DNA of 64,000 nucleotides, from NCBI RefSeq assembly GCF_054482525.1, contig NZ_CM137006.1, one strand, 5' to 3'. Below are positions 11,481 through 17,371 of the stretch, in pieces (positions within the stretch are counted from its first letter, which is position 1; each line of letters begins with the position of its first letter). The position numbers were made by a program, and so were the translations under genes. The notes under the pieces were generated by a model, which saw nothing but the letters and a program-made list of their open reading frames with translations, was not told the origin of the DNA and made no database searches.

Positions 11481-11660
11481 TCCTGAAATTATGTCACTCC
11501 GCCCTTAGTGTCAATCGACGGCTCTCCGTTCTTGCGAGGCGAATAGCAAAATTTTCTGCGCCGCCGGGCCTAATTCTGAAAGTTTCTTCGTTTGCTCTTA
11601 TTTCATTGTTGCAGTCGGTATGATACCGGACCTCGATAATTCTCTAAGAAAGGATTTCTT

Positions 11661-12320
11661 ATGAGCGAACAAATCACGTTTGCCACCAGCGATTTTGCCA
11701 GTAACCCGGAACCACGTTGCCCCTGCATTTTGCTGCTGGATGTTTCTGGCTCGATGAGCGGCAGACCTATTAATGAACTTAATGCCGGATTGGTTACCTT
11801 TCGCGATGAGCTGCTTGCCGACCCGCTGGCCTTAAAAAGAGTGGAACTCGGTATTGTGACGTTCGGCCCGGTGCATGTGGAACAACCATTTACCAGCGCC
11901 GCTAATTTTTTCCCGCCCATCCTGTTTGCCCAGGGCGATACACCAATGGGCGCCGCCATTACCAAAGCCCTGGATATGGTTGAGGAGCGCAAACGTGAGT
12001 ATCGCGCCAATGGTATTTCCTATTATCGTCCGTGGATTTTCCTGATCACTGATGGCGCACCAACCGATGAGTGGCAGGCTGCCGCCAACAAAGTGTTTCA
12101 GGGGGAAGAAGATAAGAAGTTTGCCTTCTTTTCCATCGGTGTTCAGGGGGCGGATATGAAGACTTTGGCACAAATCAGCGTTCGTCAGCCTTTGCCACTG
12201 CAGGGATTACAATTCCGTGAACTGTTTAGCTGGTTATCCAGTTCGCTGCGTTCGGTTTCCCGCTCCACGCCGGGAACTGAAGTTGTGCTGGAAGCGCCAA
12301 AAGGCTGGACGTCAGTGTGA
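11661..12320 (+). CDS. yegL: von Willebrand factor A (VWA) domain protein, TerY-like
   Basis: 219-aa ORF with a MIDAS-type motif ([11 protein letters not shown]) and downstream ...TPMGAAI... / ...LITDGAPTD..., typical of VWA domains. Its stop overlaps the start of the next gene. Confidence 0.85.
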
Positions 12321-13078
12321 GCTGGCGTCTGGTCTATGCATCAACCGTTGGAACGTCGCACATCAGCGCGGACTTGCCTTGCCAGGATGCCTGCCAGATG
12401 CAGGTTGCCTGGTTAAATGACCAGCAGCCATTATTGTCGGTATTTGTCGCTGATGGCGCAGGCAGTGTCTCGCAGGGTGGCGAAGGCGCGATGCTCGCCG
12501 TCAATGAAGCGATGGCTTATATGTCGCAAAAAGTGCAGGGCGGGGAATTGGGGCTTAATGATGTCCTCGCCACGGATATTGTGCTGACCATTCGTCAGCG
12601 ACTTTTTGCCGAGGCAGAGGCCAAAGAATTAGCGGTTCGCGATTTTGCCTGCACATTTCTGGGACTGATTTCATCGCCTGACGGCACCTTGATTATGCAG
12701 ATTGGCGATGGCGGCGTGGTGGTAGATTTGGGTCACGGTCTGCAATTGCCTCTCACGCCGATGGTGGGTGAATATGCCAATATGACGCACTTCATTACCG
12801 ACGAAGATGCCGTTTCCAGACTGGAAACTTACACCAGTACTGAGCGTGCGCATAAAGTTGCAGCATTTACGGATGGTATTCAGAGGCTGGCGTTAAATAT
12901 GTTGAATAATTCTCCGCATGTGCCTTTTTTTACCCCGTTTTTCAATGGACTGGCGTCAGCAACGCAGGAACAACTCGATTTATTACCTGAATTGTTAAAG
13001 CAGTTTTTGTCCGGCCCGGCGGTAAACGAGCGTACCGATGATGATAAAACGTTGGCACTGGCGCTGTGGTTACCATGA
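12317..13078 (+). CDS. yegK: PP2C-family serine/threonine protein phosphatase
   Basis: 253-aa ORF with a GTG start overlapping the yegL stop (GTGA). PP2C metal-binding motifs [15 protein letters not shown] and ...FTDGIQ... are present. Confidence 0.85.
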
Positions 13079-15015
13079 AACCCACTTTATATACTGCTAC
13101 TGGTGAGTGCGTTACGCCAGGCTGTGAACTGGGCAAAGGTGGCGAAGGCGCGGTTTATGATATCGAGGAGTTTGTCGATAGCGTCGCCAAGATTTATCAC
13201 ACGCCGCCACCCGCCTTAAAACAGGACAAACTTGCCTTTATGGCTGCGACAGCTGATGCGCAGTTGCTGAATTATGTCGCCTGGCCGCAGGCAACGCTTC
13301 ACGGTGGACGAGGCGGAAAAGTTATCGGTTTTATGATGCCAAAAGTTTCTGGTAAAGAACCGATTCATATGATCTATAGCCCGGCACATCGTCGCCAGAG
13401 TTACCCTCATTGTGCGTGGGATTTTCTACTCTATGTTGCGCGCAATATTGCGTCATCTTTTGCTACGGTTCACGAGCACGGGCATGTCGTGGGTGACGTA
13501 AACCAGAACAGCTTTATGGTAGGCCGTGACAGCAAAGTGGTATTGATTGATAGCGACTCCTTTCAGATTAACGCCAATGGAACGCTGCATTTATGCGAAG
13601 TCGGCGTGTCGCATTTTACGCCGCCAGAGCTGCAAACATTGCCATCATTTGTCGGCTTTGAACGCACCGCGAATCACGATAATTTTGGCCTTGCGTTGCT
13701 GATTTTTCACGTCTTGTTTGGTGGTCGGCATCCTTATTCCGGTGTACCGCTTATCTCTGATGCGGGTAATGCGCTGGAGACGGATATTGCCCATTTCCGT
13801 TATGCCTACGCGTCAGATAATCAGCGACGTGGTTTAAAACCGCCGCCACGATCGATACCGCTGTCGATGTTACCGGGCGATGTTGAAGCCATGTTTCAGC
13901 AGGCATTCACGGAAAGTGGCGTGGCAACCGGGCGTCCGACGGCAAAAGCGTGGGTATCAGCACTGGATTCTCTACGCCAACAGTTAAAGAAATGTACCGT
14001 TTCGGCAATGCATGTTTATCCTGCTCATTTGACCGACTGCCCGTGGTGTACGCTGGATAATCAAGGCGTTATCTATTTTATTGATCTCGGCGAAGAGGTC
14101 ATTACCACCAGTGGTGATTTTGTGCTGGCGAAAGTCTGGGCGATGGTGATGGCGTCAGTAGCACCGCCAGCATTGCAATTGCCATTACCCGATCATTTCC
14201 AACCGACTGGCCGGCCGCTTCCTTTAGGCCTGTTACGGCGCGAATACATCATTCTGATTGAGATCGCACTGTCAGCTTTATCGCTGTTGCTTTGCGGTCT
14301 TCAGGCAGAACCGCGTTATATTATTTTGGTTCCTGTGCTGGCGGCTATCTGGATTATTGGCAGTCTGACAAGCAAAGCTTATAAAGCAGAAATCCAGCAA
14401 CGCCGTGAGGCATTTAATCGCGCGAAAATGGACTATGACCATTTAGTCAGCCAGATCCAGCAGGTGGGCGGGCTGGAAGGTTTTATCGCCAAACGGACGA
14501 TGCTCGAAAAAATGAAGGACGAAATGCTCGGGTTACCGGAAGAAGAAAAACGTGCTCTGGCAGCACTTCACGACACCGCAAGGGAACGGCAGAAGCAGAA
14601 GTTTCTGGAGGGATTTTTTATTGATGTTGCCTCTATTCCCGGCGTTGGCCCTGCGCGTAAAGCGGCGTTACGGTCCTTTGGTATTGAAACAGCAGCGGAT
14701 GTTACCCGTCGTGGGGTTAAGCAAGTGAAAGGGTTTGGTGATCATCTGACCCAGGCGGTTATCGACTGGAAAGCGAGTTGCGAACGCCGTTTTGTGTTCA
14801 GGCCGAACGAAGCGGTAACGCCTGCAGACAGACAAGCGGTAATGGCAAAAATGACCGCCAAACGACATCGGCTGGAATCGGCGTTGACTGTCGGCGCGAC
14901 AGAGTTGCAGCGATTCCGCCTTCATGCTCCAGCACGGACCATGCCGTTGATGGAACCGTTACGTCAGGCGGCAGAAAAACTGGCTCAGGCGCAGGCTGAT
15001 TTAAGCCGTTGCTGA
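13075..15015 (+). CDS. yegI: Hanks-type Ser/Thr protein kinase-like protein with a predicted membrane segment and C-terminal helix-hairpin-helix-like motifs
   Basis: The ATG at 13075 overlaps the yegK stop (ATGA); the ORF track uses an in-frame GTG at 13066. Kinase-like motifs: glycine loop LGKGGEGAVY, VAK lysine, catalytic loop HVVGDVNQNSF, LIDSDSF. Hydrophobic stretch ...IILIEIALSALSLLLCGL...ILVPVLAAIWIIGSL..., then HhH-like GVGPARKAALRSFG and VKGFGDHL. Confidence 0.85.
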   Translation: MKPTLYTATGECVTPGCELGKGGEGAVYDIEEFVDSVAKIYHTPPPALKQDKLAFMAATADAQLLNYVAWPQATLHGGRGGKVIGFMMPKVSGKEPIHMIYSPAHRRQSYPHCAWDFLLYVARNIASSFATVHEHGHVVGDVNQNSFMVGRDSKVVLIDSDSFQINANGTLHLCEVGVSHFTPPELQTLPSFVGFERTANHDNFGLALLIFHVLFGGRHPYSGVPLISDAGNALETDIAHFRYAYASDNQRRGLKPPPRSIPLSMLPGDVEAMFQQAFTESGVATGRPTAKAWVSALDSLRQQLKKCTVSAMHVYPAHLTDCPWCTLDNQGVIYFIDLGEEVITTSGDFVLAKVWAMVMASVAPPALQLPLPDHFQPTGRPLPLGLLRREYIILIEIALSALSLLLCGLQAEPRYIILVPVLAAIWIIGSLTSKAYKAEIQQRREAFNRAKMDYDHLVSQIQQVGGLEGFIAKRTMLEKMKDEMLGLPEEEKRALAALHDTARERQKQKFLEGFFIDVASIPGVGPARKAALRSFGIETAADVTRRGVKQVKGFGDHLTQAVIDWKASCERRFVFRPNEAVTPADRQAVMAKMTAKRHRLESALTVGATELQRFRLHAPARTMPLMEPLRQAAEKLAQAQADLSRC

Positions 15016-15027
15016 GCCAGTTTTCAA

Positions 15028-16380
15028 TTAACGAAACACCACTTCCGCCCAGCGTGCCAGCCCGGCGGTGACGGAGCCAAAGTCATCGCCACCTGCAATC
15101 GGAATGCCCGGCAACTGTTCTGTCAGCGCTTTTTTAATCAGCGGTGAACGGGCGCTACCGCCAGTTAGGTAGATAACGTCCGGTTTTTCCTGGGCGTTAT
15201 CCAGCGCCAGTTGCACCTGTTCCAGAATCCGCGCCAGTGGCTGGTTGAGGGCGCTTTCCAGCCCTTGCTGGCTAATCAGCGTAGCCAGTTCATCGCTGAT
15301 AAACGGTAGTGAGGCGCGGGTTTCCGCTACGCTTGAAAGGGCGATTTTGCTCTCTTCTGCACTGCGCACCAGGCGATAGCTTAAACGCTGACGCCAGACT
15401 TTCTGTAACAGGGCCACTTTTTCCGGTTCGCGGGCATCGCGTACCAGATCGTTAAGCAGACGACCGTTGGCACTACTGTAGAAATCACTTTGCGCAGGTA
15501 CGTCGTTGATGGCAACCGCATTCCACCACGGCAGAATCGGCAGGGCGATGCCTTTTTCGGTTTCGCCACCCATGCCAAGTAACGGCATCAGGTTTTTAAA
15601 CGCCAGCGCGATATCCAGATCGTTACCACCAATACGGCAACCACTGTGACCCAGCAGGCTGGCTTCACGATCGAGACGCGAACGCCACTGCGGCCCCATC
15701 AGCAGCAATGAACAGTCAGTCGTACCACCGCCGATATCCACCACCAGCACCCGTTTTTCTTCCTGCAAGGTGGCTTCGTAATCCAGCCCAGCCGCGACCG
15801 GCTCGTACTGGAATACCACATCCTTAAACCCGGCACGCTTTGCCGCGCGTTCCAGAATCCCTTGCGCCTGGGTGTTTGCTTCATCGCCGCCCAGCCCCTG
15901 GAAGTTGATCGGGCGACCAATCACCGCCTGAGTAATCGCATCCGGCAGCTGCGCCTGCGCCTGCTGGCGAATGTGCAACATCATTGCGCAGACCAGATCC
16001 TCAAACAGCGCTACCTGCTGCGGTTTTAAGCCGCTGGCACCGAGGAATGATTTTGGTGATTTCACAAACCACACCTCTTCTGGATCATCAATGTACTGTG
16101 CCAGTGAGGAAAGACCGAACTGCACGCTTTTCGCCGTAACATCGATATCTTCTTCGCGGTTATAACGAATCGCCCGACGCAACAGCGCCTGCGTTTCATC
16201 GTCGTCTGCCGGAACATCATGATGGCGGTACAGCCATTCGCTTACCGCTTCACGCGTTGGCGCGCAAAGCATTGAAGGCAGCAGCGTGCTGTCGTTTTCC
16301 ATTTTCAGTAATTGCGGCTTACCGTCGCGCATGACCGCCACTGAACAGTTTGCTGTACCGTAATCAAAACCAATAAACAC
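15028..16380 (-). CDS. yegD: Hsp70/actin-fold ATPase family protein (DnaK-like, lacking the substrate-binding domain)
   Basis: The ORF track gives 471 aa. I place the start at a GTG (reverse complement of 16378-16380) giving 450 aa beginning FIGFDYGTANCSVAV, the Hsp70 phosphate-1 motif; later motifs VVDIGGGTTD and DVIYLTGGSARSPLI are present. Confidence 0.8.
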   Translation of the reverse strand: MFIGFDYGTANCSVAVMRDGKPQLLKMENDSTLLPSMLCAPTREAVSEWLYRHHDVPADDDETQALLRRAIRYNREEDIDVTAKSVQFGLSSLAQYIDDPEEVWFVKSPKSFLGASGLKPQQVALFEDLVCAMMLHIRQQAQAQLPDAITQAVIGRPINFQGLGGDEANTQAQGILERAAKRAGFKDVVFQYEPVAAGLDYEATLQEEKRVLVVDIGGGTTDCSLLLMGPQWRSRLDREASLLGHSGCRIGGNDLDIALAFKNLMPLLGMGGETEKGIALPILPWWNAVAINDVPAQSDFYSSANGRLLNDLVRDAREPEKVALLQKVWRQRLSYRLVRSAEESKIALSSVAETRASLPFISDELATLISQQGLESALNQPLARILEQVQLALDNAQEKPDVIYLTGGSARSPLIKKALTEQLPGIPIAGGDDFGSVTAGLARWAEVVFR

Positions 16381-16513
16381 GAAATAATCCCCATGCCGGT
16401 GAAGAAGGGGCGTGACTTTAGCGAAATGTTGCCGTCGCGACAACCGGAATATGAAAGCAAAGCGTAGCGTCTGAATAACGTTTATGCTGAAAGCGGATTA
16501 ACAAGGAGATGCG

Positions 16514-17371
16514 ATGTATACCCTGAACTGGCAGCCGCCATATGACTGGTCGTGGATGTTGGGATTTCTCGCCGCCCGTGCGGTGAACGGTGTGGAAACG
16601 GTCGCTGACGATTATTATGCCCGTAGTCTGGCGGTGGGCGAATATCGCGGCGTGGTGACTGCTATTCCGGATATAGCCCGCCATACTCTGCACATAAATT
16701 TAAGTGCAGGTTTAGAACCTGTTGCCGCAGAGTGTCTGGCGAAAATGAGCCGCCTGTTTGATCTGCAATGTAACCCGCAGATTGTTAACGGTGCGTTGGG
16801 CAAGTTAGGCGCGGCGCGGCCCGGATTGCGTTTACCCGGCAGTGTTGATGCTTTTGAGCAGGGCGTGCGGGCGATTTTAGGCCAACTGGTGAGCGTGGCG
16901 ATGGCGGCAAAATTGACCGCCAGAGTGGCACAGCTTTATGGCGAACGGCTGGATGATTTTCCGGATTATGTCTGCTTCCCCACGCCTCAGCGGCTGGCTG
17001 CAGCCGACCCGCAGGCATTAAAAGCGTTAGGTATGCCGTTGAAACGGGCAGAGGCACTGATTCATCTGGCAAATGCGGCGCTGGAGGGCACCTTACCAAT
17101 GACAATTCCGGGCGACGTAGAGCAAGCGATGAAAACGCTGCAAACTTTTCCGGGTATCGGGCGCTGGACGGCGAATTATTTCGCCTTACGTGGCTGGCAG
17201 GCGAAAGATGTTTTCCTGCCGGATGATTATCTGATTAAACAGCGATTTCCGGGAATGACACCGGCACAAATCCGCCGTTATGCCGAACGCTGGAAGCCCT
17301 GGCGTTCTTATGCGCTGTTGCATATCTGGTATACGGAAGGCTGGCAACCAGACGGAACGGACGAATTGTAG
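16514..17371 (+). CDS. alkA: DNA-3-methyladenine glycosylase II
   Basis: 285-aa ORF starting MYTLNWQPPYDWSWMLGFLAARAV, with an HhH-GPD glycosylase signature (FPGIGRWTANYFALRG). The 285-aa length agrees with my recollection of AlkA (~282 aa). Confidence 0.9.
   Translation: MYTLNWQPPYDWSWMLGFLAARAVNGVETVADDYYARSLAVGEYRGVVTAIPDIARHTLHINLSAGLEPVAAECLAKMSRLFDLQCNPQIVNGALGKLGAARPGLRLPGSVDAFEQGVRAILGQLVSVAMAAKLTARVAQLYGERLDDFPDYVCFPTPQRLAAADPQALKALGMPLKRAEALIHLANAALEGTLPMTIPGDVEQAMKTLQTFPGIGRWTANYFALRGWQAKDVFLPDDYLIKQRFPGMTPAQIRRYAERWKPWRSYALLHIWYTEGWQPDGTDEL

Follow-up and report, generated by a model that had tools for sequence, protein, structure and literature searches.

The yegD gene of Escherichia coli is already known: it is annotated and has a curated family model. 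Its product, UniProt P36928, belongs to the 'YegD-like Hsp70 NBD' subfamily of CDD (NBD, nucleotide-binding domain). Further atypical or truncated Hsp70s, STCH/HSPA13 and HSPA12, are found in eukaryotes. Beside yegD stand yegL, pphC (yegK) and yegI, which encode a vWA protein, a PP2C phosphatase and a kinase and are called the triad below; YegI has been characterised as a kinase that forms a pair with the phosphatase PphC. Triads described under the name TerY-P likewise consist of vWA, PP2C and Ser/Thr kinase, according to two accounts that PMC11090510 cites (Anantharaman et al. 2012; Gao et al. 2020).

We analysed yegD in a stretch of 64,000 nucleotides (contig NZ_CM137006.1, RefSeq assembly GCF_054482525.1), called the window. 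An earlier note on the same DNA had described yegD as an orphan Hsp70-fold ATPase convergent with the triad, and had speculated about a functional link between the two. Our reading, to which we give a probability of about 85%, is that yegD is a vertically inherited gene for a stand-alone NBD of the Hsp70 type lacking a substrate-binding domain (SBD), whose most likely role is that of an ATP-driven switch, and that its adjacency to the triad is accidental.

Fold, domain limits and catalytic residues of YegD

We built an AlphaFold2 model of YegD on an alignment of 45 family members sharing 30-54% identity with it. The model (pLDDT, the score predicted for the local distance difference test, 95.2; predicted template-modelling score 0.92) forms a single NBD from the whole 450 residues. 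All of the top 50 PDB matches found with Foldseek were Hsp70/DnaK structures, mostly isolated NBDs, with template-modelling scores of 0.66-0.73 when normalised to NBD-only targets. A sequence search against solved structures returned only the NBDs of DnaK, BiP and Hsp70 (best E 1e-15, spanning YegD residues 3-427). The two-lobed ASKHA fold of YegD is closest to Hsp70 NBDs, and the model resembles the closed, ATP-bound states of BiP and Hsp110.

Profile alignment with hhalign placed YegD residues 3-444 opposite DnaK 4-378 with a probability of 99.85%; the DnaK sequence and residue numbering used for comparison were entered by hand. The C-terminal end of YegD is equivalent to about DnaK 384, and DnaK 379-638 found no counterpart in the profile alignment. 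YegD is the nucleotide-binding domain of an Hsp70 and nothing else, because the alignment to DnaK stops at 378 with nothing beyond. An interdomain linker, SBD-beta and helical lid, the parts of a canonical Hsp70, were found neither in the alignment nor in the model. The earlier note had held that 450 residues are too few for an SBD and had asked for structure prediction and comparison with the DnaK NBD; both bear it out, and a complete conventional Hsp70 was not seen. The absence of the SBD is, for its part, already implicit in the length of YegD.

All three Hsp70 nucleotide-binding motifs named in that note are present in the translation. In the phosphate-1 motif IGFDYGTANCSV, the 45-member alignment shows little or no variation at D6, G8, T9 and N11. 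Residues D215, T220 and D222 of the phosphate-2 motif match DnaK D194, T199 and D201, and the invariant G407 and G408 of the adenosine-binding motif match DnaK G341 and G342. Between these motifs, hhalign set YegD SPKSFLG opposite DnaK AIKRLIG, with K110 invariant in the 45 members. The same sequences also leave unchanged D6, E193, D215, G217-T220 and D222, and further G251, G252, D254, E342, K345, G407 and G408. The catalytic and phosphate-binding set of Hsp70s, in DnaK numbering D8, K70, E171, D194, T199, D201, G228/G229 (G251-G252 in YegD) and G341/G342, thus has invariant counterparts throughout, and so does the DnaK pair E267/K270.

YegD is longer than a 380-residue NBD because of two family-specific insertions, at residues ~42-83 and 262-330. 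The first varies in length: in many relatives an additional 40-150 residues at this point split the alignment in two. The second carries MPxFG, GLPxP and AQxxFY in the family consensus, and the model places helices at residues 283-330 with a block-mean pLDDT of 88-98. A segment matching about DnaK 80-108 is missing from YegD in the hhalign alignment.

These results bear on whether YegD might be a conventional Hsp70 chaperone that binds unfolded polypeptides and cycles with J-proteins and GrpE. DnaK R167 contacts the J-domain. The equivalent position in YegD by hhalign is V189, a variable column of the 45-member alignment, and neither a J-protein gene nor a gene for GrpE was found among conserved neighbours. 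The name 'molecular chaperone' in RefSeq and NCBIfam, the Pfam HSP70 match (mainly residues 3-228) and the genetic-interaction and overexpression studies that group yegD with dnaK, hscA and hscC (PMC3930520; PMC6598250) favour a conventional chaperone, but with an alignment that ends at DnaK 378 and a 450-residue model consisting of one NBD, there is neither linker nor SBD. We consider this explanation very unlikely.

YegD could also be imagined as a filament former of the actin/MreB type. Pfam MreB_Mbl does match at 36.2 bits against a cutoff of 27 bits, and Rajagopalan et al. label YegD an 'actin family' protein. The match is, however, limited to residues 174-229, a motif shared across the superfamily; DnaK, HscA and BiP ranked first in all sequence searches, and the structural and sequence scores for filament formers were lower. 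In fold and sequence YegD is thus not closest to actin, MreB or ParM, and filament formation appears highly improbable.

The yegD gene, its start codon and its family

RefSeq annotates yegD ('molecular chaperone', 450 residues) on the minus strand at exactly 15028-16380, with yegL, pphC/yegK, yegI, alkA and dgcE annotated around it. The 3.5 kb surrounding yegD are 100% identical in E. coli strain SCU-102, and this region was found in 5417 of 5426 complete E. coli genomes. YegD scores 810.5 bits against the NCBIfam equivalog NF008673 (PRK11678 'molecular chaperone'; cutoff 331), with residues 1-450 on profile positions 1-450; it shares 98% identity with the E. coli protein cluster that is common, and 88-90% with its Salmonella and Citrobacter orthologues. 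It is a real, conserved gene, and a chance open reading frame (ORF) is ruled out.

The earlier note had expected a GTG start. This is the annotated codon, and it is also used in Salmonella, Citrobacter, Enterobacter and Superficieibacter, with ATG at the same position in Acerihabitans, Providencia, Vibrio, Shewanella, Aeromonas and others. All of the aligned family members (45/45) begin in this column; the sole other in-frame start candidate is a TTG at 16443. Upstream, 'catgggga' is kept in E. coli, Salmonella, Citrobacter, Enterobacter, Superficieibacter and Acerihabitans.

The leader taaagtcacgccccttcttcaccggcatgggga (16388-16420, minus strand) is nearly invariant in Escherichia, Salmonella, Citrobacter, Enterobacter and Superficieibacter. 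In its minimum-energy fold, a candidate hairpin for hiding the ribosome-binding site, a CCCC pairs with the GGGG of the Shine-Dalgarno sequence, but the fold is no more stable than those of shuffled sequences (z +0.97). RyhB has been reported to activate translation of yegD, leaving transcription unaffected (PMC4666370), and the CCCC-GGGG pairing could underlie this. No convincing site for pairing of RyhB with the leader emerged: RNAduplex gave -42.9 kcal/mol against a shuffled mean of -45, with 186 of 300 shuffles at least as good, using a RyhB sequence entered by hand. An out-of-frame ATG (16392-16394, minus strand) lies 14 nt upstream of the GTG, overlaps the Shine-Dalgarno sequence and opens a short overlapping ORF of ~29 codons.

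YegD relatives are widespread. An HMMER search of the whole library gave 340 clusters (50% identity) at E<1e-30; the listed matches, evident fragments aside, are mostly ~410-650 residues long. Species genomes were also searched with a pattern, and 336 of its first 600 matches were confirmed as relatives. From this survey, of one genome per species, 78 loci were kept, nearly all from Gamma-, Beta- and Alphaproteobacteria. A Pfam scan of eight relatives of 522-753 residues and two of ordinary length gave only HSP70 and MreB signals, with one exception, a NeuB-YegD fusion, which may be a gene-calling artefact. We regard yegD as a gene of housekeeping type, inherited vertically in the Enterobacteriaceae and in wider groups, in each case independently of the triad.

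In some genomes of E. coli and Shigella, yegD occurs as alleles with in-frame changes (P0025, P0031, P0071, P0041, P0106 and P0001): deletions of 25-38 codons (residues 141-169, ~312-336 and ~317-354) and a 30-codon duplication after residue 239. One deletion probably inactivates the protein, because it removes the invariant G155-R156 strand. This suggests that yegD is dispensable in some E. coli/Shigella lineages.

Table. Coordinates in the window of yegD, its sequence features and the genes beside it.
Feature	Position	Strand	Basis or remark
yegD coding sequence, 450 aa, stand-alone Hsp70-type NBD	15028..16380	-	
GTG start codon of yegD	16378..16380	-	conserved column
Shine-Dalgarno-like GGGGA, 7 nt 5' of the GTG	16388..16392	-	sequence reading
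Phosphate-1 motif IGFDYGTANCSV, residues 3-14; D6 = DnaK D8	16339..16374	-	translation, alignment to DnaK 4-15
Family-specific helical insertion, subdomain IB counterpart, residues ~42-83	16132..16257	-	gap opposite DnaK 45/46 (hhalign)
KSPKSF, residues 107-112, within conserved KSPKSFLG	16045..16062	-	K110 = counterpart of DnaK catalytic K70
Phosphate-2 motif DIGGGTTD, residues 215-222	15715..15738	-	invariant columns, DnaK alignments
Family-specific, mostly helical insertion, subdomain IIB counterpart, residues ~262-330	15391..15597	-	no DnaK counterpart (hhalign, BLASTP)
Adenosine-binding motif LTGGSARSP, residues 405-413	15142..15168	-	aligned to DnaK VGGQTRMP
Bidirectional terminator-like hairpin common to yegI and yegD	14975..15024	both	folding
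alkA, divergent neighbour of yegD	16514..17371	+	annotation
Inserted vWA-PP2C-kinase cassette, ~3.5 kb	11552..15027	+	junction alignments; context for yegD, no part of its system
yegL (vWA)	11661..12320	+	annotation, Pfam VWA
pphC/yegK (PP2C)	12317..13078	+	annotation, Pfam PP2C_2
yegI (kinase)	13075..15015	+	annotation

The neighbourhood of yegD and the triad cassette

We clustered the ORFs within 6 kb of yegD homologues at 80 loci and found no conserved neighbour; yegD is in this sense the orphan it had been called. The largest neighbour clusters, of at most nine loci, comprised LysR regulators, ABC transporters, chemoreceptors and genus-specific synteny (Mesorhizobium, Enterobacteriaceae). 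They give no clue to function, and inference of the role of YegD from its neighbourhood was abandoned. A cluster of 12 loci was discarded as an antisense-ORF artefact of crude ORF calling. AlkA adjoins yegD in loci L002-L008 only, the alkA-yegD synteny being confined to Enterobacteriaceae.

The co-occurrence check proposed in the earlier note was run and went against a link with the triad. No tblastn match to YegI, YegK or YegL was found within 8-10 kb of yegD at any of 82 non-E. coli loci (the 78 species loci and four Salmonella/Citrobacter loci). In Salmonella enterica and Citrobacter freundii the order is asmA-dcd-udk-dgcE-alkA-yegD-ibs-mdtABC, with no triad. Conversely, an Hsp70-like gene was absent from all three foreign triad loci (0/3), those of Klebsiella spallanzanii, Piscinibacter aquaticus and Chromobacterium haemolyticum. 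The functional link that the note had itself called speculation does not survive, with yegD occurring without the triad and the triad without an Hsp70-like gene; neither by co-location nor by co-occurrence does yegD behave as a triad component.

Junction alignments locate the origin of the adjacency. Homology to Salmonella and Citrobacter extends through ibsA/Sib as far as ~11551 and begins again precisely at the stop codon of yegD, which indicates that the cassette at ~11552-15027 entered the Escherichia lineage at this site, with the ibsA/Sib locus on one side and the yegD stop on the other. YegI shares 92-97% identity within Escherichia, ~62% with its homologues in K. spallanzanii and K. 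aerogenes and ~58-60% with those in Piscinibacter and Chromobacterium; missing among the YegI homologues are the orthologues of 85-90% identity in Salmonella or Citrobacter expected under vertical descent. In the three foreign hosts the cassette keeps its layout, with overlapping genes for a vWA protein of 218-219 residues, a PP2C of 253 and a kinase of 646-652. Its neighbours there are genes of defence or of mobile elements: GmrSD, SymE and HsdS in K. spallanzanii, BrxR, JetB and ScoMcrA in P. aquaticus, and AbiH, a KAP NTPase and TniQ/TniB in C. haemolyticum. On these alignments, yegL-pphC-yegI is a horizontally acquired, self-contained three-gene module resembling TerY-P. The data suggest that the module is mobile, and it possibly serves defence. 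A PADLOC scan of YegD, YegI, YegK and YegL gave weak partial matches only and left the TerY-P model unmatched.

At the left junction (11541-11551), E. coli reads AATAGCAAAA against Salmonella CTTAGCGGAA, which is how the 3' end of yegD (15028-15036) reads as its reverse complement. This likeness may be a decayed target-site duplicate, or alignment noise.

The right junction also holds the terminator. The yegI stop (15013-15015) and the yegD stop (15028-15030) are separated by 12 nt (15016-15027), as the earlier note had counted, and its proposal of a common terminator region is borne out by a hairpin that folds on both strands. The hairpin consists of AAAAA (14975-14979), the arm CTGGCTCAG (14980-14988), an inner stem-loop, the arm CTGAGCCAG (15012-15020) and TTTT (15021-15024). 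Folding gave -30.5 kcal/mol on the plus strand and -26.9 on the minus strand (z -4.15 and -3.97 against shuffles). A consensus terminator scan with loops of 3-8 nt did not report it; the 23 nt between its outer arms presumably put it above the 8-nt limit. The left arm is made of the last yegI codons, kinase coding sequence that is conserved in foreign cassettes; the right arm, to which the TGA stop belongs, and the T tract consist of junction sequence specific to E. coli. The hairpin thus sits at the insertion junction of the cassette.

The adjacency of yegD and yegI is, on this evidence, an accident of insertion and reflects no conserved association, because yegD loci lack the triad, triad loci lack Hsp70-like genes and the insertion junctions can be mapped. 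The competing explanation is that YegD is a substrate, regulator or effector of the YegL/PphC/YegI triad and that the convergence reflects a shared system. The 12-nt spacing with a common terminator is as it would predict, and some CoCoNuT systems do hold Hsp70-like NBD/SBD units together with TerY-P triads; those units, however, differ from YegD in that they contain an SBD and their ATPase motifs are degenerate (PMC11090510). The single PADLOC match of YegD, to PDC-M61B, was weak (22.7 bits) and covered 27 residues over the GGGT motif, so that YegD was rejected as a known anti-phage defence protein. With yegD standing alone in Salmonella and Citrobacter and at 78 loci of other species, triads of Klebsiella, Piscinibacter and Chromobacterium free of Hsp70-like genes, and a cassette that was by its junctions inserted at the yegD stop codon, we regard a triad partner as most improbable.

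Several points nevertheless weigh against our reading as a whole. Co-occurrence was examined only within 8-10 kb of yegD homologues. In K-12, yegD mRNA is reported to rise strongly on overproduction of YegJ, whose gene lies within the triad and is confined to K-12, which also favours a triad partner; the authors of that study speculate that yegD acts in a common pathway with YegI and PphC (PMC13232886). The pair yegD-yegI has moreover been listed as convergent genes whose transcripts overlap (PMC12288877). Regulatory cross-talk in E. coli is compatible with these reports, although none of them demonstrates that the function is shared. The searched literature held no biochemical or genetic study of YegD function, and we infer the ATP hydrolysis and partner binding discussed below from conservation alone. 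In the window, pphC and yegI overlap at 13075-13078 with no yegJ between them, the arrangement that the literature describes for strains other than K-12. As yegJ is absent from the window, the effect on yegD that was published for YegJ is impossible in this strain.

Proposed function and comparison with known systems

YegD would bind and hydrolyse ATP in the cleft between its lobes, and the resulting closure of the lobes would serve as a switch for binding or releasing a partner protein. Contact with the partner might be made through the insertions at ~42-83 and 262-330, the latter with its MPxFG, GLPxP and AQxxFY motifs. Unlike DnaK, YegD would clamp no unfolded peptides. That ATP-driven lobe closure controls partner binding through the family-specific insertions is a tentative proposal, to which we give somewhat less than even odds. 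We think it unlikely that the YegD family forms a bacterial class of its own among Hsp70 ATPases, one without SBDs and with the conserved insertion as a dedicated partner-binding platform.

An Hsp70 without an SBD needs another output, and one candidate is that YegD acts as an Hsp110/Sse1-type partner of DnaK, HscA or HscC, promoting nucleotide exchange or tuning them otherwise through NBD-NBD contact. The likeness of the model to BiP-ATP and Hsp110-ATP would fit such a role. The exchange activity of Hsp110 also involves its SBD and lid, however, which YegD lacks, and the YegD insertions sit where Hsp110 has no equivalent; we hold this rather unlikely. If the family were the distinct class mentioned above, an Hsp110-like regulator of DnaK/HscA/HscC would be one option and an iron-starvation chaperone, given the translational activation by RyhB (PMC4666370), another; either role, if true, would supply a function for a conserved E. 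coli gene. The biochemistry of an SBD-less Hsp70 is of moderate interest for chaperone biology. More immediately, a functional link should not be deduced from the short distance between yegD and the YegL/PphC/YegI module, and the insertion of the cassette at the yegD stop bears on studies of YegI substrates and on the reported YegJ effect on yegD.

With described TerY-P triads, yegL-pphC-yegI agrees in its three domains, their order and the overlap of the genes, and yegD is no component of such a system. TerY-P triads include a zinc ribbon or OB fold; the C-terminus of YegI instead gives a weak helix-hairpin-helix match, below the Pfam cutoff, and has been reported experimentally to form a membrane hairpin (10.1101/819920), in which it also differs from the described triads.

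From the YegD family NF008673/PRK11678 there is no difference, E. coli yegD being its founding member. DnaK, HscA, HscC and BiP have the interdomain linker, SBD-beta and helical lid, whereas YegD has none of the three and is only 17-25% identical to these proteins. Relative to DnaK, YegD adds the insertions at ~42-83 and 262-330, lacks the ~80-108 segment and does not conserve the R167 position. With Ssz1 and the Hsp110/Sse1 NBD it has in common only the NBD itself, at 20-22% identity and with no specific sequence relationship; Ssz1 and Hsp110 keep SBD-like parts, whereas the insertions of YegD are unique to its own family.

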